A DNA stretch of 64,000 bases, taken from positions 1 through 64,000 of the forward strand of contig NIVC01000037.1 in assembly GCA_002269645.1 (NCBI GenBank), in the 5' to 3' direction. This DNA is from Macrostomum lignano. Lineage: Eukaryota. Below, piece by piece: positions 366 through 43,600 of the stretch. The translations under genes and the position numbers were made by a program. Position 1 is the first letter of the stretch, and every line of letters starts with the position of its first letter. Below the pieces are notes generated by a model. It saw nothing but the letters and a program-made list of their open reading frames with translations. It searched no databases and was not told the origin of the DNA.

Positions 366-964
366 GTTGTTAAAACGAGGTGCCGTCGAAACCGGCGCGG
401 GTCAGTTCCGAAGAACTCTGCCGCAGTTATATTTTGTATTTGATCGAAAGAATTAAAAATATTTACAAGATTTCGATTTGAATATTTAATACGAATATTG
501 AAATTAAAAATATACATATATAAAACTATTTTTCAATATTTTGCAGTATTTTGCACGCATTTGGGGATAAAAAAGAGGGGAGGGAAATCCCGCACAAAGA
601 AGGGATCTAATAAAAACAGGACATCTAAAAAATACGTGCTTGATATTTGAAGGCCTATTGAGAGTAAAAGCAAGACATTTAAGTAAAAAAAAGAGATTAA
701 AAATGCAATAGCGCATATTTGAATTTAGTTGTAAAAATAGAATGAATATAGTAAAGGTGTAAAAAAGCAATTAGTAATATTTGTAGAGCAGTTGGGTAAA
801 AAACACAGTTGGGTAAATTGTAAAAAGAAACGCGAGGAGACATAGAGATTACCTAATCAGTCCTAATGACTGATCAACCGATCTCTGTCTCAGGCAGCAA
901 GTTTAGTTTTATTAGTTGCGTTTCAGAGCGTGGTCACTTCCGGTTTGGAAGGCTGGTAGCCAGC

Positions 965-3743: not shown

Positions 3744-3829
3744 AATCTTCAGGGCTGTGGTTTGATTGTTTGAGTCTACAGTTAACGCACTGAAGTTTCA
3801 ATTCAAGTCTTGAGTTTAGCTGCCTGAGA

Positions 3830-6532: not shown

Positions 6533-6750
6533 ATGGCGTGATTATTTGGGTACACTCAAACTAAACCTAAACTACAACTAACTAATGAGTCAGGAGGCAC
6601 ACAAAGTGCGCTCGCTGAGAGGGGTGGGGCGACTGCAAGATAAGACTAGGGGTGGGGTAGAGATAAAAACAAATGTACAGTGGAATGGAAGGCTAACTAA
6701 AGTACTTTCAAGAGCTAAGCTAGGCTAGTCTAAACTATTCAACTTCCAAT

Positions 6751-6819
6751 AAGCCTTTCTAGGAAAGGCCTGCAAAAACTAGAGAATTCTCCTAAGAGTA
6801 TCCCTCCACGGAAATCTTT
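6751..6819 (-). ncRNA. U5: U5 snRNA 3' half only (69 nt), abutting the retrotransposon 3' end
   Basis: Same 69-nt segment and same junction (tcttt|gttgttaaaac) as at 365/366. Confidence 0.9.
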
Positions 6820-7417
6820 GTTGTTAAAACGAGGTGCCGTCGAAACCGGCGCGGGTCAGTTCCGAAGAACTCTGCCGCAGTTATATTTTGTATTTGATCG
6901 AAAGAATTAAAAATATTTACAAGATTTCGATTTGAATATTTAATACGAATATTGAAATAAAATGTACATATATAAAACTATTTTTCAATATTTTGCAGTA
7001 TTTTGCACGCATTTGGGGATAAAAAAGAGGGGAGGGAAATCCCGCACAAAGAAGGGATCTAATAAAAACAGGACATCTAAAAAATACGTGCTAGATATTT
7101 GAAGGCCTATTGAGAATAAAAGCAAGACAAATTAAGTAAAAAAAAGAGATTAAAAATGCAATAGCGCATATTTGAATTTAGTTGTAAAAATAGAATGAAT
7201 ATAGTAAAGGTGTAAAAAAGCAATTAGTAATATTTGTAGAGCAGTTGGGTAAAAAACACAGTTGGGAAAATTGTAAAAAGAAACGCGAGGAGACATAGAG
7301 ATTACCTAATCAGTCCTAATGACTGATCAACCGATCTCTGTCTCAGGCAGCAAGTTTAGTTTTATTAGTTGCGTTTCAGAGCGTGGTCACTTCCGGTTTG
7401 GAAGGCTGGTAGCCAGC

Positions 7418-10020
7418 CTAACCCTGGGGTGGGAATCCCCTGTTTCTTTCCCGACGCCTCATGGCATCCCAGAGGACATTGAGGACAGGGGTTCGGCCCG
7501 GAGCCCGAGGGGCTTCCGGCTCAATGTGGAAGCTGTGGAGCTTGGCTGCCCTCATCTTGAGCAGCCAAGCCACCCCCAGCTGCTTGACCCTGTCTGCGAG
7601 CATCGGCATACCTGCCAGCTTGTGCAGGTATTCAATGCTGATGTAGGATGGCACACCATAGCAGATACGGAGAGCCAGGTTTTGAATTTTCTGCAATTTG
7701 ATTTGGTTAGTCGCACAGATTTGGCTCAGGATTGGCGCTCCGTAGGTGAGAGCGCTTTCTCCGTATGCCCTGTACAGCATTCTGAGGGTGGTGCTACTCA
7801 GCTTTGTCATTTTTGCAATTCTGCACAGTGACATTACAATGGCTCTGCTGGTATCTGCCATGTTGTCCACATGTTTGTTCAGGCAGAGGCTCTGGTCAAG
7901 GAGGACACCCAGGAATTTCACCTCCTGACAGTACGGAACCTCAGTGTCCCCCAGATACAGTTTGGGTCGCAAGTCCATGCGCCTAGTGGGTTTGTAGTTG
8001 AAAGCGATTGCTTTGCTTTTACCGGCATTCAGTCTAATGCCTTGTTTACCGCACCAGTCAAAGACTCGTCTGAGGTAGCTTTGAAGGGATGTTCGGAGCC
8101 CCGCAAAGGTGTCTGCTGAGGCCCAGACGGCCATGTCGTCTGCGAATTGACTGCGTTTGACGCTTGAGATGGTGGGAGTCGGCATTGAGCTGACGAAGAG
8201 GAGGTACAGGAGAGGGCTCAGAATGCCTCCCTGAGGGACGCCAGCCTGGATGGTGTGGGGATCGCTTAGGGCCCCCTCGATTCGAACCTGGATCTGTCTG
8301 TCTCGCAGGTAGTCAGACAGGATTCGCATGAGCATAGGTGGAAAACCATCGGTGAGCATGCTATGCCTGATCTTGTCGTGCCAGGTGGAGTCAAAAGCTG
8401 CCTCTGCATCCAGGAAGACTGCAGCGGACTTTTTAGCTTTGCACTTTGCTACCATGACATCTTGTGCCAGACGGCACAGGTTGTCATACGTGGAGTGAAT
8501 TTTGCGGTAGGCGCATTGGTCATCTCCTAGGGTCTTATTATCCTCAAGGTGCTTGGTGAGTCTTTTTGCTATAAGCTTCTCAAACACTTTGCCCAGACAT
8601 GAGGTCAGGCTGATTGGTCTGTAGGAGTTGGGGTGTTCGGGCGGTTTGTCCGGCTTGGGGATCATTGTCACCACAGCTTTCTTCCAGGCGCTGGGGAAAA
8701 TCCCTCGACCGTAGCAGGCGTTGAAGAGGTTAGTGAGTCTCGTGATTGCCACCCCTCTAAGCCCAGCTTGAGGACGCAGTTGGGAATCTTGTCCAGCCCG
8801 GGTGCTCCATCAGGCCTGAGGTGCTCCAGTTCCCACACTGTGTCTGCCACAGAGAATGCAGCATCAAGTGGGTGGGTCTCGATGGGTTCGATTCCCTCAG
8901 GAACGGGGTAGAATGAGGTGAGCTGTGCCACCTCGGCCACCTCACGTTTGAGCTGTTCGCATGTGGAAGGGACTGGGCGCATCTTTGAGTCCAGAGTCTC
9001 GGCTAGAAGGTTAGCCTTCTCCAGATCTGTGTGCGCAGTTGTTTGACCCAGGGTGAGGCTGGGGATGGAGGTTGGCTTAAATTTGCCCATCAGCTTTTTA
9101 GTGTCTAGTAGCTCTTTGATCAGGTCGAGGATGTACTTGGGTAGGGCGTTTTTGGCACCACAGTCTGGTACTGTGGAGTCAATCACGGTGTGAATGGCCT
9201 TTGTGATGTGATCCACTTCGGCATTGATTTGGTCAGCATTTGATAATTTAATATTCTGATCTGAGCTCAAAGCTTCACTGATTTTGAGTCTGAACTCGTC
9301 CCAGTTTGTTTTGAGAAGTTTTTGGGTCTGGGGGACCAGCCCATTTCTTCGACTGAATATTGAGCGTGAGGATTATAGGTAAGTGGTCACTGCCCAGGTC
9401 AGGACCCACCTCAAAGTCCTGCACAAATGGGAGAAAGTCCTCAGTGGCCAGGGCGAGGTCCAAGACATTCCTAGAAATCAGCCCGTTTTTGGTGGCCAGT
9501 CTGGTGAACTGACCGGCTTGATTGAGAATGGTGGGCGAGGTGGGGCCCTCAGACAGCCAGTCGTGCAGCTGGTAGCCAGCCATGTTGTTGCTGCTGTCAC
9601 CCCGAGGAAGCGGTGTCTGGCATTGAGGTCACCCATGAGCACACTGCGCCTACGAGAGAGAAGATTTTTGAGTAGGTTCAGGTTCAGATGGTACGGTGCT
9701 GGAGACCTGTACACCAGAGCGAGATTGAAGTCAGGACCAGAGTTGTCAGACAAGCTCACGGTGCAAGAGATGGCTTCATGGTTGACATTGTCATACTGCA
9801 AGCGCACATTTGTGAGTTTGACGCGAGGAGAGTGGGCAAGGAGAAGCCCGCGTTTGACTTGCGGGGTATCATACCGAATGATGGAGTACCCGGGAATCTG
9901 GACAGTGTGACAACTTTTGAGAATGGTCTCAGAAAAGAGGGCAATGTCTAGCTCCTGACTGACGACCCACTGTGTCAGCTCTCTGATTTTCGGGTTGAAT
10001 CCCCTGCAGTTTAAATGCAT
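7418..10020 (-). pseudogene. ORF2 of the deleted unit (APE + RT), with frameshifts and an in-frame deletion of about 58 codons
   Basis: ORF pieces 9478-10020, 9275-9583, 8668-9270 and 7418-8752 match unit 1. LIKE-LL-DTKK replaces LIKE(60 aa)DTKK. Confidence 0.85.
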
Positions 10021-10106
10021 AATCTTCAGGGCTGTGGTTTGATTGTTTGAGTCTACAGTTAACGCACTGAAGTTTCAATTCAAGTCTTGAGTTTAGCTGC
10101 CTGAGA

Positions 10107-11021
10107 CTAGGACTCAGTGGTCATGCCAGCCATGCCCGGCACTTCCTGGAGTGCAGCCCGCACAATGTCCTCAACCATTTTACTGGTTGATTCCACAGTG
10201 AGGACCTCCCCAGGCGGTCGGGACAGGGCCTGCACAACCACTTGAGTCAGAGAGCGGGTGATCAGGGGCAACAGCATGCTCACCACCGACATAAAGTCAC
10301 TAAGCTGCAGCTGCACGATGTAGGTGTACGACGGGCCGATCCAGTAGACACGGCGCTGCTCACTCGGACGATGCTGAAAGGCCAGAGGCAGCAGGTCGGT
10401 GATCAGGCGCTCGTAGACTTGGTCCGCGACCTCGCTCAGGAACTTGGGCGCATAGATGATGGTGCTGTCGCTAGCGTAGATCGTCTGCTGACAGTCAGTC
10501 AAGTCAGGCTCATCAGGGAAGATGATTTGACTGATGTCAGCGTCCAGTTGCTCGGCAGGGGGCTTTGGCAGCGTCGAGGCCTGGTCTGCAGCCGATTGCT
10601 GGCGCTCCTCAGACGTCGGCGCTGCCGCTGCCGCACTGAGCTCGCTGGACTCGGCAGTTGGTGGCTCGGTGGTTGCTGCGGCCTCGTTGGATGGCAGGGC
10701 GCTTGTCTGGCCTGGCTCGTCGCAGTCGAGAGACATGCGCTGCTCTGCCTCTGCGCCTGCAGCCTCCGGCAGCTGCTCATTCTCTCGCAGGATCTCCTCT
10801 GCGTTGCGCAAGAGCTCGCCGGCCGGTGGGCTGATCGAGTGGCGGCCTTCCAGACTGCGTCGAGCTCGCATCAGGCCTGCTGGCGGCGGGCTCGCAGTCG
10901 ATGGCTCAGCTGTCGGCGTCAGTCCAAGAAGCTGGCGACCGTAGGCTTCGTTCGGACGATACCGGTGCTCGAGAGAGGGCCGGCAGTCCATCTTTTTAGC
11001 GCTGGCGCGATTTGCAGCCAT
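10107..11021 (-). CDS. Deleted ORF1 of unit 2 (304 aa, in-frame fusion lacking the AlkB core and zinc knuckles)
   Basis: ...GPSYTY|I|VQLQLSDF... joins unit-1 position ~5830 to ~4038. Confidence 0.8.
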   Translation of the reverse strand: MAANRASAKKMDCRPSLEHRYRPNEAYGRQLLGLTPTAEPSTASPPPAGLMRARRSLEGRHSISPPAGELLRNAEEILRENEQLPEAAGAEAEQRMSLDCDEPGQTSALPSNEAAATTEPPTAESSELSAAAAAPTSEERQQSAADQASTLPKPPAEQLDADISQIIFPDEPDLTDCQQTIYASDSTIIYAPKFLSEVADQVYERLITDLLPLAFQHRPSEQRRVYWIGPSYTYIVQLQLSDFMSVVSMLLPLITRSLTQVVVQALSRPPGEVLTVESTSKMVEDIVRAALQEVPGMAGMTTES

Positions 11022-11247
11022 ATGGCGTGATTATTTGGGTACACTCAAACTAAACCTAAACTACAACTAACTAATGAGTCAGGAGGCACACAATTACACA
11101 AAGTGCGCTCGCTGAGAGGGGTGGGGCGACTGCAAGATAAGACTAGGGGTGGGGTAGAGATAAAAACAAATGTACAGTGGAATGGAAGGCTAACTAAAGT
11201 ACTTTCAAGAGCTAAGCTAGGCTAGTCTAAACTATTCAACTTCCAAT

Positions 11248-25600: not shown

Positions 25601-28600
25601 CTATGGCTGACAACACTAAATAGAGGGGTCAATTGACCCCCAATGTACACTATTGCTGACAACACTAAATAGAGGGGTCAATCGAACCCCCCCATGTACA
25701 CTACGGCTGACAACACTAAATAGAGGGGTCAATCGACCTCCCTCCAAAGTTCACTTTGGCTGACAACACTAGAGCAGAAATAAGTTTCTAACAGGTGATA
25801 ATTGAATGCTCACCCGCCAGTGATGCAGCTCGCTAACGTAGCCCCAGATAGCAACTGTGAGTGCCCGATTGCCCGGCTCGGTGAGCAGGCCAGTGAACAC
25901 GTAGTCCTCCGTAGTGAACCGATGGCTGTGCCAGCACCGGCCAGCGTCGGTGCTAAATTTAACAACCTGCGGCGAGCTGCCGTTAGCAGATTTCTCAACC
26001 GCTACAAGAAAATTGCCATTGTTGCCAATCTGCACGCGATGCGGGCCTTTCAAAGCCAGGTACCAGGAATAGCCGCCGTCGCTGCTGATGTACACGTCGG
26101 CTGGGTTCGACTGCAGTTTGGCGGCGGTGTGGCCGTGAACGATAAGAAGGCCGACGGCACTGGGCGCTGATCTGGGCTGGTCGGCCGGCACACTGCGGCT
26201 GATGCTGTAATAGGAGGCCACCTGACAGGCGGTTGGGCGGTTATATTAGACCATGAGATTAGACCGACTGTCTCGGAGATCTCACTTATGAGATTAGACC
26301 TACTGTCTCCGAGATCTCACCCATGAGATAAGACCGACTGTCTCACGAGATCTCACCCATGAAATATCACTACTAAGAGATCTCACCCATCAGATTAGAA
26401 ATTGTCTCACGAGATCTCACACATGAGATTAGACCTACTGTCTCACGAGATCTCACCCATGAGATTTAACTACTAAGAGATCTCACCCATGAGATTAGAC
26501 CTACTGTCTCCGAGATCTCACCCATGAGATTAGACCTACTGTCTCCGAGATCTTACCCATGAGATTAGACCTACTGTCTCCGAGATCTCACCCATGAGAT
26601 TTAACTACTAAGAGATCTCACCCATGATATTAGACCTACTTTCTCCGAGATCTCACCCATGATATTAGACCTACTGTCTCCGAGATCTCACCTATGAGAT
26701 TAGACCTACTGTCTCCGAGATCTCACCCATGACCTCTATCTCAGAGGTCTCACCTGCAGATAGCACGGGCCGCCATCAGTAGTCGTACACGTGACACCGT
26801 CAGGTTTACTGAGGTGCCGCCAGACCGCGCCCCTATTATGCGTGATCACGGAGTGCATGGACGCGTCAGAGTGCAGCACGGTGCTCAGGAAGGCGCCGCG
26901 CATTGACTCAACCTTGTAGAAGTCGCTGCTGCCGCCAAGCGGAGGGTAGAAATTCCTCTCCAGGGATTTGGAGAACACCTGGCCAAGACTGTTGGAGGTG
27001 TACAGAGTGCCGTAGCCCAGGTAGTTGCCAGCGTCGATGTGCACGAAGGCCAGACCATCGCTGGTGTCCAAGATGACAAAGAATCTGTCCGGAGTAGCTG
27101 AAGGCAGCTGAGTGCGAACGAATGTCTTGCCGCAGTCTGTTGATACCTGCCAATTATAATTGTGAATATATGATTTAGGGTTTCAATTGTGCAAGTGGGA
27201 ATTGAAGCTATGAAAGTAGCAATTAAGCAGGGAAGTTGAAGGTCAAACGTTAGAGGTCACTGCTATTATGGTTGTGAAAGTGAGAATTATGGTTGTGAAA
27301 GTGAGAATTATGGTTGTGAAAGTGAGAATTATGGTTGTGAAAGTGAGAATTATGGTTGTGAAAGTGAGAATTATGGTTGTGAAAGTGAGAATTATGGTTG
27401 TGAAAGTGAGAATTATGGTTGTGAAAGTGAGAATTATGGTTGTGAAAGTGAGACTTATGGTTGTGAAAGTGAGACTTATGGTTGTGAAAGTGAGAATAAT
27501 GGTTGTGAAAGTGAGACTTATGGTTGTGAAAGAGAGAATTTATCAATGCGAGCTTAGCCACTAAGGCGACTGTGAAAATAAAGACGATACCTCTAAATGC
27601 CTGGACTCGGCCTTGCCCTCGTCCGATTTGGATATAAAAATAAAGCCGTCCTTATTGTTATAAGAGTAGATTTTCTCAGCCAGTGTTTTCCAATTATTGG
27701 ACCCGGCAGTGAAGTCCGTCAGCTTCGCGAGTTGCCGGCCGGGCAGCCTGTGATTGCTCGAAGCGACGCCGTCGCGCAGCAGAGATACGAAGCTGGCTTC
27801 GCCATCAAATGCAGCGTAGATACTGTCCTTATCATCGGCACTAACGCCCCAGGAGGCCTGCGGTTTAGTAGGTGGGGAATCTTTACAACTGATTACTTCA
27901 GACTGCCGCTTCACTGCCGTTAGACACTGGCCTGTACACCTGTTAGACAGGGGATTCTGCATCTGTTAGACACTGGCCTGTACACCTGTTAGACAGGGGA
28001 TTCTGCATCTGTTAGACACTGGCCTGTACACCTGTTAGACAGGGGATTCTGCATCTGTTAGACACTGGCCTGTACATCTGTTAGACAGGGGATTCTGCAT
28101 CTGTTAGACACTGGCCTGTACACCTGTTAGACAGGGGATTCTGCATCTGTTAGACACTGGCCTGTACACCTGTTAGACAGGGGATTCTGCATCTGTTAGA
28201 CACTGGCCTGTACACCTGTTAGACAGGGGATTCTGCATCTGTTAGACACTGGCCTGTACACCTGTTAGACAGGGGATTCTGCATCTGTTAGACACTGGCC
28301 TGTACACCTGTTAGACAGGGGATTCTGCATCTGTTAGACACTGGCCTGTACACCTGTTAGACAGGGGATTCTGCATCTGTTAGACACTGGCCTGTACATC
28401 TGTTAGACAGGGGATTCTGCATCTGTTAGACACTGGCCTGTACATCTGTTAGACAGGGGATTCTGCATCTGTTAGACACTGGCCTGTACACCTGTTAGAC
28501 AGGGGATTCTGCATCTGTTAGACACTGGCCTGTACATCTGTTAGACAGGGGATTCTGCATCTGTTAGACACTGGCCTGTACACCTATTAGACAGGGGATT

Positions 28601-31398
28601 CTGCATCTGTTAGACACTGGCCTGTACACCTATTAGACAGGGGATTCTGCATCTGTTAGGCAATGGCCTGTAAAACCTGTTAGACAGGGGATTCTGCATC
28701 TGTTAGGCAATGGCCTGTAAAACCTGTTAGACAGGGGATTCTGCATCTGTTAGGCAATGGCCTGTAAAACCTGTTAGACAGGGGATTCTGCATCTGTTAG
28801 GCAATGGCCTGTAAAACCTGTTAGACAGGGGATTCTTCATCTGTTAGACATCTGTTAGACACTGGTCTGTACATGTTAGACGGGAGTCTCATATCTGCTA
28901 GACACCTACTCTCCCAGCACCTGTTAGACATCTAGGCTCCCAGCACCTGTTAGACATCTAGGCTCTCAGCACCTGTTAGACATCTAGGCTCCCAGCACCT
29001 GTTAAACACCTTCTCTCTCAGCACCTGCTATACATCTAGGCTCCCAGCACCTGTTAAACACCTTCTCTCTCAGCACCTGTTAGACATCTAGGCTCCCAGC
29101 ACCTGTTAAACACCTTCTCTCTCAGCACCTGCTATACATCTAGGCTCCCAGCACCTGTTAGACATCTAGGCTCCCAGCACCTGTTAGACATCTAGGCTCC
29201 CAGCACCTGTTAGACATCTAGGCTCCCAGCACCTGTTAAACACCTTCTCTCTCAGCACCTGCTATACATCTAGGCTCCCAGCACCTGTTAGACATCTAGG
29301 CTCCAAGAACCTGTTAGACAGTCACTCTCAAACCAATTAATTCACCTTGAACACGCGCTTCTTAATCAAACGCCAATCCTGACCGGCATTAACTGACAAA
29401 TACAGCTTGTCACCGGCCTGGGCAAGCAGCCAATCGGGCTTGTCAGTGTGAAACAAAATCTGAGCAGATTGGACCGGAAACCCGGGGCTGGACAAGTGCC
29501 AGGTGGCACCGCCATCCAGAGTGTAATAGAGAAGTCCGGTGGCGCCGCCCAGCTTAGCGGGGTCGTGGCAGGCCAGGTAGATTCTGGCTGGCTGGGCTGG
29601 ATTCCGCTGCAGGCCCAGCGATTGGGACACTAGAAGGGCGGAACTGGTAGCGCCGGCTTCAAGGATCTTGGCGGTGATGTTGACAAAGGTCCGGCCATCG
29701 TTGGTGCTTCTGTAGACGCTGGAGTCGCGGGTTAGAACACCCTGTGTTCGAATAGTCACTATGATGAGCGTCTGAAATTAATTACATTTATTATATATGA
29801 GCATTATTAATGAGCCTTAGCAGAACAGTTCAATAGTAATTGCTGATAAAACTCACCTGATTGCCTGCCCAAGTCATCAGCAAGCTGGGTTTAGTCTCAT
29901 TGGAGAAGATAAACTACAATTTTAGAAATAGTTAAAAAATTAACAAAAATATTGAGGATTTCTAACACTAAGATATTTGTAATATGACTAGTATAAAGCA
30001 AATTGATGCACTTTTCACTATACTGGCACATATAATAGCAGTTGATAAACTCTAGCCCATGAAGCCTCTCTATCTGGCTTTTAGGCCCTTTGCAACTTAA
30101 TAAAAGCAATCTAGCCTACTCAAATTTTGTATCTCTTCTTAGTTCTTTTTTCTTCTACTCTTTTTTTCTCTTCAAATTTTAATTCTCCTTTCCCTTTCTC
30201 TTTTCTAATCTTTCTCTTTTTCTTTTTTTACTCTTTTTTACTTAATACTTTCCTTTTTCTTTTCTATTATTATTGCTACTTTTCAAATTGCTATAAAACT
30301 TATAAAATATAAAATTGCTCATAGGTATCAAAATGAGAAAGGGTTGGAAAGGGGATATGGCCTTCTTACTTTTAAAGTAGGAGGACCATCAATGGTACTT
30401 GCCTGTCATCCTTTTTTTAGCAACTCTTGCTATATTTTTTGCTAAATAAAGTGCTAAAATTATTTTCAAAATTAATTTATTTATAATATAAGCAATTGCT
30501 TTTTTAAATAAAAGGTAAAAACAAAATAAATCAGATTGGGTCAGATCTAGGATCAGATCCATTGGCATTAGATTAGCAATTAACTGATTATAACAAAGTA
30601 GTAATGATTATAGGCATTAGAATGGAGGTCTAAAAGAGCCATACCCCTATCTCCCACTTTTTAAAAACATTCTAATGTTTATAAAATTGCTTAAATGCAT
30701 TACCATTAGATTAGGTTAAAATTGTCAACTAGCAATGAATTTGAATATAGATAAGCCTATATATTTAAAAATATATAGTAGTAGATTAAGTAAAAGTATA
30801 TAATCTTTGATTTGTTATCAAATTTTGGCAAAAAAAGTAAATCTAAGTCTTATAGCCAATATAATTTCATAGGTTGTTTTAAAAAGTCAATATAATTTAT
30901 ATAATAAGATTATAAGTGATAAGAACTCGTGGCACTGGAAGCATGTGCCTAATAAAAAATGAGTCTAGGTAGCACACAATGCATTGTTTCCTTGACTTTT
31001 TAGTTTTTGATATTTGATTTTGGCTGCTTAGTAATAATAGCTAATATCAAATAATATTTGTGCTTTTTCTCATTTTAGATTCTAATTAGGCCCCCTAGTA
31101 GCTTATAGCTATAAGGACACCCATGCCCCTGTGCCCCATGCCTAGAGCCCTCCCCCCCTAATTGGCCCTAAAATATTAGGCTCCGCTGCCCCTGATCAAT
31201 AAAAAGTACTTTTTAAACCAAAAAAAATTAACTAACCTCTGAAACAAACTTTGATTGAACAGCAGCAGATGAAAGTTTTTCTTTAATATTTTTTTGTTGC
31301 TCAGTGCACTTTGGAGATGAATCGATTGATTTCGTGCAGGAAGTGAAAACAAAAAAGATGATTATCAAAATGCCAAATATGCTTTTCAAAAGACTCAT
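19683..31398 (-). CDS. SORT1: Sortilin-like Vps10p-domain receptor, 8 exons (31237-31398, 29857-29913, 29346-29771, 27591-27857, 26754-27146, 25814-26221, 20792-21199, 19683-20174), about 870 aa
   Basis: All junctions are GT-AG and in frame. Signal peptide MSLLKSIFGILIIIFFVFTSC. Asp-box/BNR repeats SxDGGxTW, STNDGRTF, STDCGKTF and STDAGRCW. A Cys-rich 10CC module (CVLG...CECTKDDFECEFGY), one TM helix, and a tail with YSIV and DKQALL sorting motifs. No LDLR, FN3 or PKD domains. The family call is firm, but orthology to SORT1 is inferred from architecture. Confidence 0.85.
20198..20757. repeat. (CAGT)n microsatellite, about 140 perfect units, filling intron 7 of the sortilin-like gene
   Basis: Direct reading. 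Confidence 0.97.
21240..25130. repeat. Compound minisatellite: 21-bp units (21240-21779) followed by related 58-bp units (21780-25130)
   Basis: Periods 21 and 58, sharing the GAGAATGGAGATTCA core. Lies in intron 6. Confidence 0.95.
25526..25770. repeat. About 50-bp tandem repeat (4-5 units) carrying a GGGGTCAATTGACCCC palindrome or degenerate versions
   Basis: TAGAGGGGTC at 25571, 25621, 25670 and 25721. Confidence 0.85.
26250..26735. repeat. About 35-bp minisatellite (GAGATCTCACCCATGAGATTAGACCTACTGTCTCC), intron 5
   Basis: Tandem units. Confidence 0.85.
27265..27540. repeat. 21-bp minisatellite (ATTATGGTTGTGAAAGTGAGA), intron 4
   Basis: Tandem units. Confidence 0.9.
27920..29320. repeat. 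46-bp minisatellite (27920-28860) followed by a related ~26-bp repeat (28910-29320), intron 3
   Basis: Both share the CCTGTTAGACA core. Confidence 0.9.
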
Positions 31399-33429: not shown

Positions 33430-33723
33430 CATTCGCCTCTCGCCTCTCACTCCCCTCTCACTCTCCCCTTCTCACCCCCTCTCACTCTTTCACTCCCCTC
33501 TCACTCTTTCACTCGCCTCTCACTCTCCCATTCTCACCCCCTCTCCCCTCTCACTCTCCCCTCTCACTCTCCCCTCTCACTCTCCCCTTCTCACCCCCTC
33601 TCCCCTCTCACTCTCCCCTTCTCGCCCCCTCTCACTCTTTCACTCCCCTCTCACTCTTTCACTCCCCTCTCACTCTCCCATTCTCACCCCCTCTCACTTT
33701 CTCACTCTCCCCTCTCACTCTCC
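33430..33723. repeat. CT-rich low-complexity repeat, left flank of the Polinton-like element
   Basis: Same CTCTCACTCTCCC-type units and same orientation as 43083-43600, so one array split by the insertion. Confidence 0.85.
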
Positions 33724-34612
33724 ACTACTAAGGACTGGTAGATCCGCCCTTTTTGGAGGTGGGGTGGGTGTCAACCCTCCTCGCCTCTCATTGGCTGGCG
33801 CGCGCGCCGCAGGCGCGTGGCGCTATCCAGGCGCCAATTAGGCGCCCATGCCGCAGGCGCACCCTCCCGATATGTACCCCGATATGTATGCCCTCCCTCC
33901 CGATATGTATGCCCACCCTCCCGATATGTACCCCGATATGTATGCCCACCCTCCCGATATGTATGCCCTCCAGAGCAGCAGGCGCCTATGCTGCAGGCGC
34001 CCATGCCGCAGGCACCCCGAGTGTACACTCTACCGAGCCGCAGGCACCCCGAGTGTACACTCTACCGAGCCGCAGGCACCCCGAGTGTACACTCTCGCGA
34101 TATGTACACTCTACCACTCTCCCGATATGTACACTCTACCACTCTCCCGATATGTAGTCAACGATATTAGGCTAGTGAAAACTACTTATAGTAGGTGAAA
34201 TTGAGTATATTTACATAAAAATGTAGATAAAACATATTGGTAGGTGAATAATGACGCATAATACATATTGGAGCATATGAGCAGCAAAAACACACAATGT
34301 AGGTGCATGGGCAGAAATAGACAAAGCAGGTACTGTAGGCGCTACATAGGTGGAAATACACACAGCAGGTTTACAAAGTGTACTTTCGATACATATCGGA
34401 TTAATGTATAAAGCAGGTTTACAAGGCATGCATAAGATGTAGTTGTATAATACAGGCACGCATGTATAATCAGATTATAGGCAAACGCCCAGGTGCAATT
34501 TCAACAGACGCGTAAATAATGTCACACCGACTAAAGAGTAAATATTGTCTAGCCCGCAGGTGCATAAAAATTTTAAACAAAAGCGGTTCGGGGAAATCCC
34601 AAAAGGGAGGTT
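33724..34612 (+). repeat. Left terminal inverted repeat (~890 bp)
   Basis: Reverse complement of 42214-43082, with indels in the internal GC-rich repeat block. Confidence 0.9.
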
Positions 34613-34978
34613 CACGGCCTAATGACCCGATATACTTTCAACACAATTAAACCCACAAGTGGGCTAGAAAAATGGACAACGTATTTCGATTGCGCTATCA
34701 GTACGCTAATCAGCGCAGCAAGTTCATGTCAGGAGTTCTACTCCAAGAGGCAGACCGCTGGGCCACAAACCGCCCCGAGGGAATAGGTGTCAAATGGGAG
34801 TTTTAACACTTGAGGGGATCCCGCTCAATGTACAGTGGAGGCGCCAAATGAGTAAGGACCCCTAAGTACAGTGCGGGCGTAAAACCATTTTCATCCCCAC
34901 GAGTCAAGGGATCCCAAGTGGGCACATAGGGGAATCCCAGGCAGGGAGGCGTAAAAAAGATAGATCCTTATCTTTCAC

Positions 34979-37900
34979 TCACTCCCGAAAGCCATACGGG
35001 CGGCTAGCGGCCCCATACACCCTCTTAGTCATTACGCGCTGGAAAGTCTTGTCCATCTCGAGGGTCCGGATTGTACAGCTAGCCTTATCGCGCCTGAACT
35101 GGGCCTGGGGCAGGCGTACAGTCCCGCCGTGACGCAGAATTTCCTGCAGCTCGTCCTCGCGCTCGGAAATCTCGGGCGTGACTCTGATGCCCTTGCACTT
35201 GAGCACCGAGTACAGCGACCCGTCAGGCTTCTCCACCACGTACCGGTAGAGCTTGGGGCCTCCCGTGGTGAACTGTACCATGCGGCAGCCGGCAGGTACC
35301 TCGTCAGTCCACTGCCCCAAACTCGAACCGCCCGGAGGCTCGTACTCGCCCGGGGAGCAGCGGTATACGACCCTGGGAGGAGGAGAAGGATAAAAAAGTG
35401 TTAAGGGGAGAAAGAGAGACAGAGACAGTGAAAAAATTACTTACGAATCGGTATCGGCGTAAATGACGCGGGTTCCTAGACCCTCCAGAGCCTCGTAGAG
35501 TCGCAGCCGGGCGTGGGAGGTGGTGAAAACGCCAATAGGTACATTAGCGTACTTGAACGCCCGCTCGCCAGCACCGCCAAATCGGGGCTTGTACTCGAGC
35601 ATCATAAAGCTCTCCCCAATTGGCTCGCACGACTTGACCTTGATCGAGGGGTCTGTCAGGCGCTGCAGCCACGCCTCGTAGCTGTCCACAATCTCTGTGG
35701 AGGTCAGGTCGTCGCGCTGGCAGAACTTGCCCCAGAGCCTGCAGGGGAAAAATAAATTTTTGTATATCTGGCTACTGTAAGTAGAAAAACATGGTCCCCA
35801 CTGCAAGTAGAAAAACTTACGAGTTTAGAAAAATCTTGGCAACAAAGCGCAGGCCAGGATTTTCTTCCACCTTTTCCAGCCGGACGCCTTCGCGCTCGAA
35901 AAAGCTGGCCATGTAGGCAGCCTTGGCGTCCTCAGCCATCCCCGGCGAACCGCTAGACTCGGCTTTGAGCTTCAAAAAAGTGTTTACATAATCTGCAAAC
36001 AGGCCCGTGCGAGTCTCGGTCCAATAGGCCAGGGCATGAACTGACTGCAGCTTGTAACCCAACTGCAGGGCTTTGTGGAGCTCTGGGGTCGACCACGTGC
36101 CGCGGAGCATTCTCTCAGCGTCAGTGTGTGTACACTCGCTGCTGCACTGGGTCTCCATGCAGACGCGGCAGAGGCCGAAAACCAGCTTCTTGTTAATCTT
36201 GGCGGGCAGTAGCGGGATGTGGAGATTGGTTGGCGGCAGAATCGACACCTCGGCGATGCCAAAATACCGGGCCAGCTGCAGCTCATCCAGTAGATGAGGC
36301 TCGGGGTGGTGTACCGGGTGCCCGACAGGGTACTTGTCAAACTTGTTGACAGTCGGGTAGAGCGACACCTAGGGGATAAGGATAATAGAGAATTAGAGGA
36401 TAAGATAAACTCAAACGCATGTCAACTGTGTGTACAAGTGTACAAACTTACCACATCCCGATAGCGCAGCTCAACAGTCTCGGTGGCCTCGGCGTGCGGG
36501 ACAAAAGCCTCGGTACGGCCGCCAAACAGGGCATCCTCCAGGCGAATAGGCTGCTGGACTGGCGCTCCCTCGTCCTGATAGTCGTGCTCCCACAGAACAC
36601 GCACATTGTATGCAGTGGAGAGCAGCCGGGTGAAGCGCTCAGTCTCCTCATAAATCGCCCGCATTGGCTGGTTCTTGAGCGGGTGCAGCACGTCGCCGTT
36701 GGGGAAGCACTTGGGACAGCCATGGAAGAAGCAGCCATGAAACTGCAGCACTGTCCTGGTCTCTGGGTCGAAGCCGTCGACCTTACGACCCATGGCGAAA
36801 GCCTCACCGCCCGAGTCCGCTGTCCGCAACCGGCCGCCAAACTCGGTTGCATTCAAATGCGCAAGCCAGCACCGCGCCTTGTGCGACTGTACATCGGACC
36901 GGCGGGAAATCACCCCAAGAGTGTTGGGCTCCATAAACTTGGTGGTGAATACTGCCATGGCCAAGCCCGCAATGGTGTTGGATTGAACAAATGCGTCCAG
37001 TCCGCAAATGTCCTTAATCAGGCGGGTGTACTTTAGACAGCCTTCCCGCAAAATTAACGTGTCCTGCAGGCAGTAGTCCAGGTACTCCTTATTGAAATTA
37101 AACACCTGTCCCTCCTGCTTGGCCAGCCAGTCGGCGATGGAGTCATGCTGCTTGTTTTTCTTTCCTCCATACATATCAATTGAGCAGTAGGGTCCCACGT
37201 ACCCCCAATTTTGAGGCTGGTTAAACACGTGCGGGAAATCTCCTTTGGTCAGTTGGGTGCCCAAACCAAGCGCCTTTGGGAATTGCGCCAGACCAATAGG
37301 GATGAAATTGAGGCTGTCCTTGAATGTTATCTTGTCGCACTTCATATACATTAGGCGGCTGTTCTGGAAGATCACTTGCGGCTTCTTCTTGGCCAGTCCG
37401 TTGAGTAGGGCGCCGAGCAGGAGGAATGCGTCATACGCAGAGCCATTGTGCGCAATAGCAATTGCCCCCTGCTTGAACACACTAGTCAGCCAGCAGTAAA
37501 AGGCATCGATAGAGTGCGGCCCGACAGATACAAACTCTCGCATCCCACAGGCACAGTCATTGTGCGAGACACAGCTCGTGAAATCGAGTGCCAAATCGCG
37601 TCCCGCAATGCAATTGGCTGAGCTGTGTAGTCCCCCGCACACGCTGCAGCGGGGCCTGGGGAAGAGTTTGGGACACGCCTCGCAGGAGGTGGCAGCCGTA
37701 ACCAAGTGTACCCGGTGCTGCTTGCCAGAGTCCACGTACGTCTCGAAATCATAGTAAACATACGGGGCGCTAGACTCTTTGGCTTTGGCGGGGTGACAAA
37801 GCACTCGTGGGTGGCAGTTTCGTCGTACTGCTTGCAGACTGGGCACTTGGCATAACCACACTGATGCTCAGGGGGCTGGCCTACTTTTAGTTCTTCTAGA

Positions 37901-39994
37901 TAGCCACACGTGCCGCAAACGTGGACCGAATCACAGCGCGATCTGCCGGCCTTATTCTTGCGCTTGTGATTTTCTAGGCACTGAGCATTATAGCAATTTA
38001 GCCCGCAATCATGGCATCTTACATATGCGCGGTTTGCCTTACAGTTGGAGCCCGGAGTCTTGCATGTACTGCAGGCATCAGCGCACTTGTGCTTGGCGGT
38101 TCGCTATCATAGGCCATCTCGCACTTGGGGCAGTAGCGGCGGCCACCGAAAAACGCAGGCAGCTTGGTGACCACATTAAAGTGCTGCTCGACCAGGTGCA
38201 GGTGCAGAATCTCGGTGCCAGGCAGGTTGAAGATGCACCTGTTGGCCTCCTCTGCGCGGTACACGCGTACACCAAAATCGTGCCCTGGATGCAGCCGGTT
38301 CAGGGCACGGATCGCTTCGGGCAGTGCATCCACCCCGAAAGGACCGGCCTGCGAGACGGTTTGAAGAGTCTGTGTGGGGGTAAAATATTTCTTTTAGTAT
38401 TCCCTGATACTATGTAAAATTCTTTTAGTATTCCTTATCGTAAAAATTCTTTTAGTATTCCACGATACTGTGTAAAAATTCTTATCAGAAAAATACTAGA
38501 AACTTACCGTGTAGAGGCCTGCTTCGACTTGTAGCTCAGCCACCAGCTTAGTCTGGGCGGGCGAATTAGCCTTGATTGTACGCCACAGCCGCTCGGTGAT
38601 GGACTTGGCCACGAATTGCAGGTAGGCGCAGGCCACGACCAGAGCGCGCAGCAGGCACCTCTTGTCCGAGTTGGTGATGCGGACATAGTGCCTGGAGAAG
38701 GCGTGCCGCTCCTCTAGATGCTTGTTCTCGAGAGCACATCCACCTCGAGGCACCCAGGCCTTTAGCAACCGGATAGAAAAGTTGCCTGACAATACAGTGG
38801 CATCCGACTGCACAATCTTGTCAATGTGCTTAAACAACAATTCAGCCGTCATGCGGGCTGCACGCACCGGGGGAGTGTGGGCCGCTTTGAGCATGTTGTC
38901 GCTCTCGAATTTCGCGGCCATAAAGTCATCACCAGCCAAATCTTGCTTGAAAACTTCGAGCATGTCAGCAAACACCTCCCGCAAATCTTCGGTGTTGGTA
39001 ATACGCACCACATACTCGACACCCTTTGCCCTAAACTTGGGCAGGTCACGCTGATTATCCAGCCGGGCCGTAAAACCTGCATGGGGGGAATGGGGGAGTG
39101 TGAGTCAGCCCGGGTCTGTGTGGGAAATGGGGGGCGGGATAACTCACCCGGTCCGGTAACAGATTCCGGCTGTGTTGGCGGGACAAACGCGTCTGAAAAA
39201 ACACAAGGAGATAAAAAACCAGAAGAATCTGTCATTTTCCTGGCCCCAGCGTGTTTCCCGCCCTAGCCCCAGCAATTTCTTAACAGAGTTTACTCTGCTG
39301 TCCCCGCAGCAACTCTCTGCAATTTCTTATCTGCACCCCCGCTGCAGCCTGTCGCAGCAGTCTTTGTTTACTCACCCCTGCAACTCTCTGTCGCAGCAAT
39401 TTGCACCCCAGCTGCAGCCTGTCTGGGTAGCGCCCTATCTGCAGCCCCAGTCTGTCCCAGCAACTCTCTGCCCCCACCCGGCTGAACTTGTCTAGCCTGC
39501 CCCAACGATTCTGCAGCAATTTCTTATCTGCCGCAGCACCCTAGCAACTGTCTGTTTTTGCAGCAATTTCTTATCAGCACACCCCTCCCTGTCTAGACAA
39601 CACCCCACCCCAGTCTTTGTTTACTCACCCCTGCAACTCTCTGTCGCAGCAATTTGCACCCCAGCTGCAGCCTGTCTGGACAACACCCCCCTAGCAGCAA
39701 TTTCTTATCAGCACACACCCGGCTGAAACTTGTCTAGCCCTCCCCTGCAACTCTCTGTTACAGACCCTGCCGCAGCACCCCACCCTAGCAACTCCAGTCT
39801 AGACCCCTGCAGCTGTCGCAGCAGTCTTTGTTGTTTACTCTGCGGTCCCACAGACCCTGCAGCTGCTGCTGCTGCTCAGCCCCTACCCCCACCCTAGCAA
39901 CTACAGTCTAGACAGAAATTAATTAAAACTTACCATAAAGACGTTGCCTCTTGTCAGCCAGGAAAGCAGTTGCGGTGGCGCTGCGTTTAGCCAT
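34979..39994 (-). CDS. polB: Protein-primed family B DNA polymerase, spliced: exons 39934-39994, 39148-39192, 38508-39076, 36452-38369, 35821-36368, 35445-35738, 34979-35372 (two 1-nt frameshifts at ~38105 and ~37790)
   Basis: Exonuclease motifs YYDFET, AHNGSAYD and YCLQD. Polymerase motifs DV|VSLYP, KIFLNS|LWGKF and YADTDS| are restored by GT-AG splicing. The N-terminus has ITNSDKRCLLRALVVA and a CxxC-rich region, plus an inserted DGF...FHGCFFHGCPKC segment. The first two exons are less certain. Confidence 0.88.
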
Positions 39995-40065
39995 TTTGCA
40001 AACAGAGAGCGTGAGAGAGCGAGCGGAGAGAAGGATTATCTCTCTACCCTGGCTCTGGGGGTCTG

Positions 40066-40190
40066 TATATATACTAAAAAATCTGCTCAGCTCGCCTGTT
40101 ATTGGATAAATCGCCAAAAACCAACCAAAATCATCAAAAATCACCCCCAAAATCATCACCCACCCCACCCTCCATCCGGGGGTATATAAG
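40066..40190. promoter_or_regulatory. Divergent promoter region of the Polinton-like element, with two TATA boxes
   Basis: TATATATA at 40066-40073 lies ~70 nt before the predicted PolB ATG (39994, minus). TATATAAG at 40183-40190 lies ~45 nt before the ATG at 40236. A third TATATAA at 40806-40812 precedes the ORF at 40886. Confidence 0.55.
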
Positions 40191-40235
40191 GCGCTGCACG
40201 GCTGTCAGAGAGCTCTCTGCTGCTGCTGCTAAATC

Positions 40236-40769
40236 ATGTCTTCTATCTCTCTATACGAAAACTTTGTGGCGCGGAAGCCCACATTTGAAACTGAACACAA
40301 CTTGATTGAAATTCGGCGTCTCTACACCAACGAGGCTGGAGTGTGGAAGGACGGCTTCCCTGCAATCTACTTGGCCGAGCCAGAGTGGAAGAAGCTCGAA
40401 GCTGCGCGCCCTGACCTGGAGGCTGCTGCCCGCCTTCACGTGAACAAGCGGGTCCTGTTGGGCAATTTCAAGGCAGTTGAAGCTTCGCGAGGGAGGATCC
40501 GTTTGCTGCGCAATTGGCTCAATCAGGACCCAAAGTTTAATTGGCGCTACACGATCGAATTCACGCCTGAACTGTGGCGCCGGATGTTTGCCGCCCGTTT
40601 GGACAAGCTCTTCAAGCCGGCACCTGAGGCACCCCCTCCAGCCAAGCGAGTCAAGACAGACACGCCTCCGGTAGCCGGGACTGAGGTGGATGTTCTTCAG
40701 CTCGTGGGTCTCAAACCCTACCAATCTCCACCCTGGGAAAATCTGTTTAACGAGGGTTGGGACTGCTAG
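40236..40769 (+). CDS. Putative PC4/Sub1-like ssDNA-binding protein (possibly two tandem PC4-like repeats), 177 aa
   Basis: IEIRRLY-TNEAGVWKDG-FPAIYLAEPEWKKL resembles the PC4 pattern (VDIREYW...G..KPG.KGISL..EQW..L). A weaker second copy is IRLLRNW...RYTIEFTPELWRRM. Recognised by eye only. Confidence 0.55.
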   Translation: MSSISLYENFVARKPTFETEHNLIEIRRLYTNEAGVWKDGFPAIYLAEPEWKKLEAARPDLEAAARLHVNKRVLLGNFKAVEASRGRIRLLRNWLNQDPKFNWRYTIEFTPELWRRMFAARLDKLFKPAPEAPPPAKRVKTDTPPVAGTEVDVLQLVGLKPYQSPPWENLFNEGWDC

Positions 40770-40885
40770 TTTCCTATTGGTTCGCACCGCCTCACTCGAT
40801 CCGTCTATATAATTAGTGTTTCCCCCCTCTCCAGAGAGTCAAACCCTATCTCAGCTCTAATACTTTACTCTCTGTTGATTCTAGC

Positions 40886-41900
40886 ATGTCCCGCCGAGCT
40901 CTATCCAACCTCTGGGATAATAATCGCCCGACTGAAGAGTTAACCAGCCTCGACGGGGATATCCCTGAACACATAGTTCCCCTAGGCACTGAAAACAACG
41001 GAAGTGATAATTGGGAGGCTGATCAATATCTAGCTTGGGCTATGTCCTATGATAGCGACACCGAGTCTGAAGTTTTTGACCTCCCGCTGCTGGCTATCGG
41101 CGGGGTTGTGAACGGTGCCCCTGCTGCTACTGCCTCCGATTTGACTACCGCCTCAGCCGCCCTCTTTGACGTCTCTGTTGAGGAGCTGACCACAACCGGC
41201 CCTGCCTCTGCTGCGCCCGTCTCTGCTGCTGCCGCCTCTACTACGCCCGTCTCTGCTGCTGCTTCAACTACCTCCCACCGGGCCTCAATATCATCAGCCG
41301 CTACGCTCCTTCTCTTCGACGACGAGGACGAGGATATGTCTGAGGAGATCGCCGTGGTTCGTGAGCGCTTTCCTCGCATTGTGGCCTCATTTTTCCGCGG
41401 GGACATTGACTGGCTGAGGTCTCGGCATCCTGGCGGGCTGCCCTCCCAAGCTACCTTTGTCAGAGCCTTTAATCGGGTTCTTGATACTTTGGTTGCGAGG
41501 GGTGCCGGCCTACGGGAGGTGTTGGAGGCTGAGACTCTGCACCAGGACTGGTTGATGGGGCGCAATTCGTATGCCCCCGACTCTGAGGCGTACCTGGCCG
41601 GTCCGGGAGCGCGGCCAACTGCGTGGGATGAGCCCGTCGCATGGCCCTCCAACTGGGAGGAGCACCTTTCGTTGGTGCGCTATACAGCGTCTCTACGTCT
41701 GTGGCGGCTGGAGGACGATTTAGATTTGGTAAGATATTACATTATATACACAACTCATCTAATCATATACCTTGCATATATTCTATCTACATTGACTGTT
41801 ATAATTTCCACATTGCCAGTCATCCGACTACTGCTTCGAGAGCGTGGAGGAAGAGGCCGCGTACGAGACAGCCCTGAGGGAGCGTATGGAGATTGACTGA
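40886..41900 (+). CDS. Orphan Polinton ORF, acidic and Ala/Ser/Thr-rich, probably spliced (40886-41728, 41820-41900)
   Basis: A long GC-rich ORF after a TATA box. The AT-rich segment ttg|gtaaga...ttgccag|tca (41729-41819) behaves as a phase-0 intron, giving ...EDDLDL|SSDYCF...RMEID*. Confidence 0.65.
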
Positions 41901-42213
41901 TAAGGGTATTTCTCTTTGTACGCGGTTTGGGGAACCCAACACTGTACACTGGGTAGGTTAGAATGGGCGCTAGCTGGGGGCCTCTATGTGTGTATACACG
42001 GGGGTTAAAAGACCAATTCTGATAGCTCGCTCCTAGGGAGGAAATTGGCAGAGGGGCCGGCCCAAAAAACTGAAATGGGCTGGCCCCGGGCTCGAGTCCA
42101 CCCACCTAAAATATGGAGGGTCATTACAACCTAATGACTCGAAATACTTTCAACGCAATTGTACCTATAAGAGGGTTAGGGCGGCGGCGGCGGTGGCGAA
42201 AACGGGCGGCTAA

Positions 42214-43082
42214 AACCTCCCTTTTGGGATTTCCCCGAACCGCTTTTGTTTAAAATTTTTATGCACCTGCGGGTTAGACAATATTTACTCTTTAGTCGGT
42301 GTGACATTATTTACGCGTCTGTTGCACCTGGGCGTTTGCCTATAATCTGATTATACATGCGTGCCTGTATTATACAACTACACCTTATGCATGCCTTGTA
42401 AACCTGCTTTATACATTAATCCGATATGTATCGAAAGTACACTTTGTAAACCTGCTGTGTGTATTTCCACCTATGTAGCGCCTACAGTACCTGCTTTGTC
42501 TATTTCTGCCCATACACCTACATTGTGTGTTTTTGCTGCTCATATGCTCCAATATGCAATATGCGTCATTATTCACCTACCAATATGTTTTATCTACATT
42601 TTTATGTAAATATACTCAATTTCACCTACTATAAGTAGTTTTCACTAGCCTAATATCGTTGACTACATATCGGGAGAGTGGTAGAGTGTACATATCGGGA
42701 GAGTGTACACTCGGGGTGCCTGCGGTTCGGGTGAGTGTACACTCGGGGTGCCTGCGGCATGGGCGTCTGCGGCATGGGCGCCTACGGCTCGGGAGGGTGC
42801 GCCTGCGGCTCGGGAGGGTGTACATATCGGGGTACATGTCGGTAGGGTGAGCATACATATCGGTAGGTGCGCCTGCGGCTGGGGAGGGTCGCCGGTGGCT
42901 CGGGAGGGTCGCCTGCGGCTGGACGGCGCTTGGCGCCACGCGCCTGCGGCGCGCGCGCGCCGAGCGCCGATATCGATACGGGTATCGATCACCTAGTGAT
43001 CGGGGCGCCAGCCAATGAGAGGCGAGGAGGGTTGACACCCACCCCACCTCCAAAATCAACACTTACGGAATCCCTTAGTAGT
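42214..43082 (-). repeat. Right terminal inverted repeat (~870 bp)
   Basis: Reverse complement of 33724-34612. Confidence 0.9.
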
Positions 43083-43600
43083 CTCTCCCATTCTCACCCC
43101 CTCTCACTCTTTCACTCCCCTCTCACTCTCCCATTCTCACCCCCTCTCACTCTTTCACTCCCCTCTCACTCTCCCATTCTCACCCCCTCTCACTTTTTCA
43201 CTCTCCCCTCTCACTCTCCCATTCTCACCCCCTCTCACTCTTTCACTCCCCTCTCACTCTCCCATTCTCACCCCCTCTCACTTTTTCACTCTCCCCTCTC
43301 ACTCTCCCATTCTCACCCCTCTCACTTTTTCACTCTCCCCTCTCACTCTCCCATTCTCACCCCCTCTCACTTTCTCACTCTCCCCTCTCACGTTCCCCTC
43401 TCACTCTCCCCTCTCACTCTCCCCTCTCACTCTCCCCTCTCACTCTCCCTCTCACTCTCCCCTCTCACTCTCCCCTCTCACTCTCCCCTCTCACTTTCCC
43501 TTCTCACTCTCCCCCCTCTCACTCTCTCCCCTCTCCCTCCCCCTCTCACTCTCTCCCCTCTCACTTTCTTTCCTCTTACACTCCCCCTCTCACTCCGCCT
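43083..43600. repeat. CT-rich low-complexity repeat, right flank of the Polinton-like element
   Basis: Continuation of the 33430-33723 array. Confidence 0.85.

Follow-up and report, generated by a model that had tools for sequence, protein, structure and literature searches.

Polintons or Mavericks (polintoviruses, adintoviruses) are reported to carry intact exonuclease and polymerase motifs, long terminal inverted repeats as well as target duplications of 6 bp, and some pPolB2 polymerases contain a VSR-like insert (10.1101/2023.08.22.554363; PMC8097293; these and the papers below are cited for the parts of their text that were accessible). The same traits were found in an element of the flatworm Macrostomum lignano, which lies in the window, that is, the whole 64,000-nt stretch of DNA analysed here (contig NIVC01000037.1, positions 1 to 64,000, assembly GCA_002269645.1). 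A PC4-like gene is common to this element and the complete Polintons of the same host. The element differs from described Polintons in its length of 9.4 kb, its lack of integrase, ATPase and capsid genes, its ends (ACTACT, not AGTAGT) and its six spliceosomal introns, three of which split catalytic motifs A, B and C of the polymerase gene. Intact vertebrate Mavericks are reported intron-free (PMC8097293). The ordinary Polinton polymerases of the host are intron-free as well, in agreement with an earlier sequence-only reading of this DNA, which took such genes to be continuous as a rule.

Several other systems resemble the locus in part. Mirusviruses, DNA viruses of the nucleus, have GT-AG introns (shintrons) in conserved genes, and homing endonucleases of HNH, GIY-YIG or VSR-like type can be encoded within their spliceosomal introns (PMC12768974), whereas the window introns are short and nuclease-less, the VSR domain stands in the polymerase frame and the target is the polymerase, not virion genes. 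The DNA polymerase gene of chloroviruses, a giant-virus family-B enzyme, is reported to hold a spliceosomal intron, but a single one, and clustering at motifs is not mentioned in the accessible text (PMC7019647). Introners in dinoflagellate Polinton-like elements are likewise spliceosomal introns inside such elements, but they belong to repeated transposon families and were mostly gained after integration (PMC11957031), while the window introns are unique, old and inherited with the element. Group I introns occur in cryptophyte Polinton-like elements (PMC12220804), and the sole passage on introns in the accessible text of the adintovirus paper concerns a maturase (PMC8502044). Archaeal PolB inteins occupy three fixed active-site positions, one of them at YGD/TDS in motif C, 8 nt from intron C of the window (PMC549080; here and below a slash marks the point of interruption). 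Inteins and group I introns differ from the window introns, which are spliceosomal and not self-splicing, carry no endonuclease and are offset in position. We take the other two intein positions to lie at motifs A and B; a literature search on the three named sites found nothing. Neither this element nor a clustering of spliceosomal introns at the motifs of Polinton polymerases was found described in print in a search that left subscription journals, Repbase and supplements outside.

The polymerase gene and its parts are as follows, all on the minus strand.

34979..39994, minus: polymerase gene, protein-primed family-B DNA polymerase of pPolB2 type, seven exons
39934-39994, 39148-39192, 38508-39076, 36452-38369, 35821-36368, 35445-35738 and 34979-35372, minus: polymerase exons
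39193..39933, minus: first intron, 741 nt, repetitive internally
39077..39147, minus: intron in the N-terminal region, 71 nt
38370..38507, minus: intron in the N-terminal region, 138 nt
36560..36895, minus: predicted VSR-like nuclease domain, an in-frame insert between the exonuclease domain and motif A
36369..36451, minus: intron A, 83 nt, phase 0, inside motif A (RDV/VSLYP)
35739..35820, minus: intron B, 82 nt, splitting the motif-B Ser in phase 2 (KIFLNS/LWG)
35373..35444, minus: intron C, 72 nt, splitting the motif-C Ser in phase 2 (YADTDS/VVY)

Four of 24 listed sequencing runs were aligned to positions 34700-39260. Runs X1, X3 and X5 come from three separate studies; their status as RNA was deduced from the joints, since the record does not list it. 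Contigs of all three skip introns A and B exactly, with 83- and 82-nt joints of canonical ends (CT..AC on the plus strand). One 1,729-nt contig (X5 record 23) skips all three motif introns and is the only evidence for the removal of intron C; its 72-nt skip has no row in the joint table, and a skipped repeat is reported inside intron C. The 71-nt joint was seen in X1, X3 and X5, and the 138-nt joint in X3, X5 having a 140-nt skip with 2 letters between. In X1 and X3 the 741-nt intron is seen as loose ends at 39193, which fit exon 1 when read by eye. Run X17 gave no joints on the aligned region. Intron-less genomic copies were rejected as the source of the joined contigs, and the joints are best read as splicing, because no intron-less junction was found in 132 genome stretches (some overlapping or without an element copy). 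Introns A, B and C are real and are removed from transcripts. All three lie where the sequence-only reading had placed them, and the three further introns that it had predicted are skipped by transcript contigs too.

In the window copy introns A, B and C run from GTAAGT to YAG, with a G+C content of 36-40%, compared with 56-62% for the exons on either side. The introns of the polymerase gene have the GT-AG ends, the removal from transcripts and the free length of U2-type spliceosomal introns, and their length and ends argue against group I or group II introns. The uniform GTAAGT donor had been pointed out before; it holds for the window copy, but this hexamer is the usual consensus of U2 donors, and intron C starts with GTGAGT in 9 of 30 close copies. 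The exon of 1.9 kb, earlier described as free of introns, indeed contains none; its frame is broken twice in the window copy (near 38.1 and 37.8 kb), whereas 11 of the 18 other copies located have it open.

Comparison of one exon with the 764-Mb genome gave 127 matches, 45 of them full-length at 94-100% and a second group mostly at 54-77% (matches, not copy numbers). Introns A, B and C were present in all 30 close copies, with lengths of 65-111, 67-83 and 67-75 nt, a GT donor in 30/30 each and an AG acceptor in 30, 30 and 29 of 30, respectively; the 138-nt intron measures 119-320 nt in other copies. The exon between introns A and B is 546 nt long in all 30. The polymerase exons are under purifying selection: the ratio of non-synonymous to synonymous polymorphism was 0.069, 0.012, 0.063 and 0.171 for four exons (14-18 of 20 copies, with exon length kept and no stop, a filter that favours intact copies).

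A sister family (family II), whose C-terminal exons are 63-74% identical, carries introns at the three motif sites too and also at the 138-nt site. It was considered as an intron-free control and discarded, as it contains all three introns and its 867-residue frames merely read through an intron A that keeps the frame. Intron A of family II begins with GTGAGT and, in 8 of 11 copies, keeps the reading frame without a stop. Two outside records (61-65%) start at the motif-A site and stop at the motif-B site, and a third (71%) stops at the motif-C site. Rows of the window group spanning motifs A to B form one clade (support 100). The sharing of intron positions by families only 63-74% identical bears out the earlier suggestion that the lineage has long depended on the nucleus. 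A common origin of the three introns was not upheld: A, B and C are unlike each other, and only intron B of the window family (family I) against intron B of family II beat shuffled sequences (p 0.005). All 40 genome matches of intron A adjoin polymerase copies (compared by eye; introns B and C were outside this search). An origin as introners finds no support, intron A being confined to element copies and the introns being mutually unlike.

The closest named proteins are UniRef gene models of M. lignano, many of them already with spliced motifs. Open reading frame (ORF) callers cut the genes into exon-sized pieces (P0055, P0056, P0276), as the sequence-only reading had anticipated, and ORF-based surveys of Polintons and adintoviruses will miss such intron-split lineages or miscall them as decayed.

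The placement of the introns is not easily ascribed to chance. The probability that one of six random introns falls in each of motifs A, B and C is 3.5e-5, or 0.006 under a lenient definition with 10 motifs, the windows for this calculation having been set after the fact. When 8-codon DNA windows were ordered by conservation, motif C came 1st, motif B 5th and motif A 7th. The intron sites are not rich in protosplice signal, ranking 61-1294 of 1,425 in 44 intact loci, and a protosplice bias was rejected as unsupported.

More distant polymerases were searched for the same pattern. The metagenome set comprised 80 loci kept from 145, at 38-47% identity. By pattern, 67 of the 80 were contiguous at motif A, 72 of 80 at motif B and all 69 that reach motif C; by eye, the remainder show substitutions, frameshifts or contig edges, L165 excepted. 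Most of these metagenome loci are contiguous. Locus L165 (40% identity) has four predicted introns, two of them outside motifs. Its GT-AG introns split the Ser of motif A, 5 nt downstream of the window site, and the Trp of motif B, 6 nt downstream. A GC-AG intron is predicted between motifs A and B of this locus (931-1018). Scans of IMG/VR gave no relative.

Motif B is covered in 138 of 150 library representatives, and 55 of the 138 stop before the end of the model. Twelve of the early ends lie within six positions at motif B and four near motif C. In a strict count, from which the window-clade row, two unclear rows and rows with long tails were dropped, 6 ends were exactly at motif B against 18 over 214 other positions (P 1.5e-5). 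The invariant Ser of motif B is replaced by Arg in five ends, the mark of an AG/GT donor. Several protein ends read Asn-Arg or Asn-Ser followed by a stop, as expected of a phase-2 donor, and two ends in motif C carry a phase-1 signature. These protein ends, read without their DNA, suggest further independent interruptions at motifs B and C. Rows interrupted at motif B required 12 changes on a quick 173-row tree, in which starred sister pairs join them with contiguous rows. For the 15 rows broken at the Ser of motif B, a single clade was rejected by the approximately unbiased (AU) test (p-AU 0.0006, 8 changes) on a 60-row subset whose 45 comparison rows were chosen after the tree was seen.

The window gene matches PF03175, and the best fold match of its product is the phi29 polymerase (Z 15.1), which marks it as a protein-primed family-B DNA polymerase. 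A single-sequence fold was of low quality, with a score of 31 in the predicted local distance difference test (pLDDT). The domain inserted before motif A resembles Vsr (1cw0, Z 8.0, root-mean-square deviation 3.5, 101 aligned, model 288-399, model pLDDT 85), a match that is borderline alone. Foldseek gave weak rows for 1cw0 (E 0.024) and for the homing endonuclease I-Bth0305I (3r3p, E 0.42), while a Pfam search gave no match for the domain. An Asp is present in 95 of 100 rows and a His is conserved too; together these data point to a putative VSR-fold domain within the polymerase. An EndoVII domain is found in PolB of host Polintons, with its motif in 5 of 7.

The explanation that we favour, tentatively and as possible more than probable, is that the motif introns persist where homing-type nucleases repeatedly cut invariant catalytic motifs, either as scars of escape or as spent homing introns. 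Such gain or spread driven by nucleases is favoured because the sites are conserved and not of the protosplice type, because inteins and homing introns offer precedents, and because nuclease domains are present in these polymerases. Targeting of conserved sites is described as typical of endonuclease-driven elements such as group I introns, and cellular spliceosomal introns are reported to have no preference for such sites in the accessible text of the same source (PMC2814812). In Bathycoccus PRP8 a spliceosomal intron sits at an intein codon (PMC3749507), adjacent introns can be mobilised by free-standing nucleases (PMC11296320), and homing endonucleases of the VSR fold exist (PMC3239194; PMC2677866). 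A nuclease would cut the invariant DNA of the motifs again and again, and an intron placed there would break its target lastingly and leave the enzyme unchanged. The cutter could belong to Polintons resident in the same genome, for instance the VSR or EndoVII domains within their polymerases, or else have been an endonuclease once encoded in an intron and no longer present. On this view the introns are either scars of repair, which make the site immune, or homing introns of the spliceosomal kind that are spent, and could be copied between elements as the uncut allele. The spliced polymerase would copy the element by protein-primed strand displacement, and the integrase of a complete Polinton would insert it in trans. 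A more specific version is somewhat unlikely as a whole: in-frame VSR or EndoVII homing nucleases would cut the motif DNA of rivals, the motif introns would arise and spread as immunity alleles so that endonuclease conflict steers intron gain to active sites, and the lineage without integrase and capsid would be a self-replicating satellite of complete Polintons.

A number of observations weigh against the nuclease explanation. The motif introns of families I and II and L165 are 53-158 nt long, too short for an endonuclease gene, and no nuclease was found inside any intron seen, so that none qualifies as a shintron. Site-specific cleavage of motif DNA by VSR or EndoVII domains is conjecture. 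Apart from its borderline fold match, the VSR domain lacks any evident module for binding specific DNA sequences, may have a role in repair or replication, and also occurs in intron-free relatives (52 of 81 long representatives). Motif introns were found in 1 of 80 metagenome loci, most relatives being uninterrupted, and outside the host genome all cases except L165 are protein ends without DNA. The profile used for these ended at motif B, and the ends of hidden Markov model matches drift to conserved anchors; some rows counted as contiguous may be spliced gene models. Deep support in the quick tree is weak, and the choice of comparison rows for the AU test was made in sight of the tree. Breaks are not clearly in excess at other DNA windows of equal conservation, half of the introns in the window gene and L165 fall outside motifs, and no intein-sized insert was found at the motifs among about 160 proteins.

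The main rival is survivorship, which is unlikely in our estimate. It supposes random intron gains in nucleus-resident lineages, with introns in invariant motifs persisting because their imprecise deletion is lethal while others are lost. No nuclease is required, and introns A, B and C were never lost in the 30 close copies nor in those located in 16 further stretches. Most of the polymerase fold, however, should likewise be intolerant of imprecise deletion, the three non-motif introns were retained as well, and many gains and losses are demanded to leave the 1.9-kb exon empty; the reported absence of such a bias among cellular spliceosomal introns also speaks against it.

Few ancient introns followed by many precise losses, through complementary DNA made by host retroelements, and by small slides is an improbable alternative. 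The phase-2 position in the Ser of motif B is common to 15 rows, reverse transcriptases of long interspersed elements (LINEs) are abundant in the host, and gain and loss are not separable on an unrooted tree. The scatter of interrupted rows on the 173-row tree is nevertheless at odds with few origins, as are site offsets of 3-7 nt among lineages and a split Ser codon that reads TC/G in the window gene and AG/Y in others. The placement in motifs would also be left unexplained.

The sequence-only reading had proposed that introns in the motifs gate replication on host splicing, and selection for such a tie is rated slightly lower still. A retained intron B or C puts a stop directly after the Ser codon, and the splice sites are almost invariant among copies, an invariance for which the need for a working enzyme already accounts. 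The gate does not explain the position, because any stop-bearing intron upstream already inactivates the unspliced product. Intron A of family II, mostly in frame and stop-free, would not act in this way. Spliced contigs occur in three separate studies with no hint of regulation, and nothing shows regulated retention. The sequence-only reading also overlooked the absence of integrase and capsid genes from the element and the recurrence of the pattern in distant lineages.

Sequence context, in which motif codons offer splice signals (protosplice AG/G; Val-Ser as GTAAGT) and local duplications become introns, is largely refuted as the sole cause and is given very little probability. The first 12 nt of intron A in the window (36440-36451) read V-S-L-Y, as does the start of the next exon, and the ends of Asn-Arg type and motif A of L165 are located at MAG/. 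About 60 positions, however, equal or exceed the MAG/ frequency of the best motif site, the window A site and the Trp sites have MAG/ in 0 of 44, and intron A of family II lacks the echo, beginning with a short AGTAGT...ACTACT palindrome. Least probable of all is escape from a homology-guided host defence that targets the best-conserved parts of Polinton DNA or of its nascent transcripts. In its favour are the high rank of the motifs in DNA conservation and the many Polinton families of the host; against it, introns leave the mature mRNA unaltered and ordinary host Polintons share little sequence with the window clade.

The origin of new spliceosomal introns is an open question, and here they mark the polymerase active site in several lineages, as inteins and homing introns do. 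A small, multi-copy, transcribed element of what is likely a laboratory flatworm offers a system for testing nuclease-driven intron gain, and a class of minimal, polymerase-only satellites may have been overlooked.

The element that carries the gene has the following further features.

33724..43082, no strand assigned: whole element of 9,359 bp, derived from a Polinton and lacking integrase and capsid genes, with the ends ACTACT...AGTAGT
33718-33723 and 43083-43088: 6-bp target duplication CTCTCC, within a tandem repeat
33724..34612, plus: left terminal inverted repeat, about 890 bp
42214..43082, minus: right terminal inverted repeat, about 870 bp
40236..40769, plus: PC4-like gene, oriented divergently to the polymerase gene, 31% to an ORF from a Polinton of the host (E 2e-8)
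40886..41900, plus: accessory ORF with a predicted intron at 41729-41819 (outside the region of the read test), missing from many copies

The PC4-like gene is 44% identical to an ORF that matches Pfam PC4 at 1e-5, and its product is likely a single-stranded-DNA-binding protein. An Atlas search gave no match for the accessory ORF. Target duplications of 6 bp flank 6/6 two-ended copies in one set and 16/17 in another (one copy in both). Counts of the end motif were 63 on one genome strand and 69 on the other, against 0 for the control. Neither the (AGT)2 nor the (AG)3 end of Polintons was found, the ends being ACTACT in family I and ACTACG in family II; one fish Maverick is reported with an (AC)3A end (PMC8097293). 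No integrase match was detected in the ORFs of the window element or in the ORF lists of 20 copies, and in 21 further stretches matches lay only in flanking or nested Polintons, none in the element itself. Host Polinton capsid and packaging-ATPase queries gave no match in end-bounded stretches, and the window element has no such ORF. It also departs from the intron-free core genes of Polintons. The element was filed as a Polinton derivative because it works as a Polinton-like replicon but lacks integrase and capsid genes.

Between the invariant tip ACTACTAAGG and TTTTGG there is a variable cassette of about 17 nt (window 33734-33750 and 43056-43072). It looks like a mosaic of two half-alleles and is usually identical at both ends of an element; in the window copy the two ends differ.

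Many end-bounded elements are non-coding or palindromic derivatives, which template switching in strand-displacement replication would yield. Many same-ended elements without a polymerase contain long internal inverted duplications (L172-L189), and one palindrome with two PC4 genes and partial polymerase copies (L173-174) resembles snap-back defective genomes. In family II, a LINE with RNase H was seen in the 5' part of the polymerase, apparently in or near the first intron (L044, L049, L087, L088).

The complete Polintons of the host have integrase, ATPase, AGTAGT ends and polymerase frames of 987-1,478 residues; from recall and gene order they presumably also have capsid genes. The nearest intron-free host relative is a decayed copy (36-46%), contiguous across motifs A and C. 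A helper Polinton with ACTAC ends was not found among the ends read for about nine host Polintons, all of which begin with AGTAGT. A flank search of 34 elements for a preference to insert into Polintons gave 1 clear case, plus two by eye, and does not establish such a preference. In L172 (3274-8991) a complete Polinton has its integrase gene interrupted by a derivative, which a 6-bp duplication accompanies, and in L089-L090 with L171 an element spans 40 kb with an adintovirus-like Polinton nested inside. An ORF in the flank of L063 resembles what we take to be the adintovirus phospholipase-like domain. A complete host Polinton (L071, 8267-8896) carries a TATA-binding-protein-like ORF (Pfam TBP, E 1.7e-23), and similar ORFs are present in others. 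Polintons of 11-13 kb (L191-L194; C291, C738) have integrase, capsid-like and ATPase genes and AGTAGT ends, with no long polymerase ORF in their ORF list; this family may be the counterpart that complements the polymerase-only elements, despite its different ends.

Elsewhere in the window, positions 857-11030 hold two LINE-type retroelements with endonuclease and reverse transcriptase, one of which has a 2OG-Fe(II) oxygenase (AlkB-like) domain upstream (4833-5819). Exons of a host sortilin/Vps10 gene lie at 25769-29777 on the minus strand.

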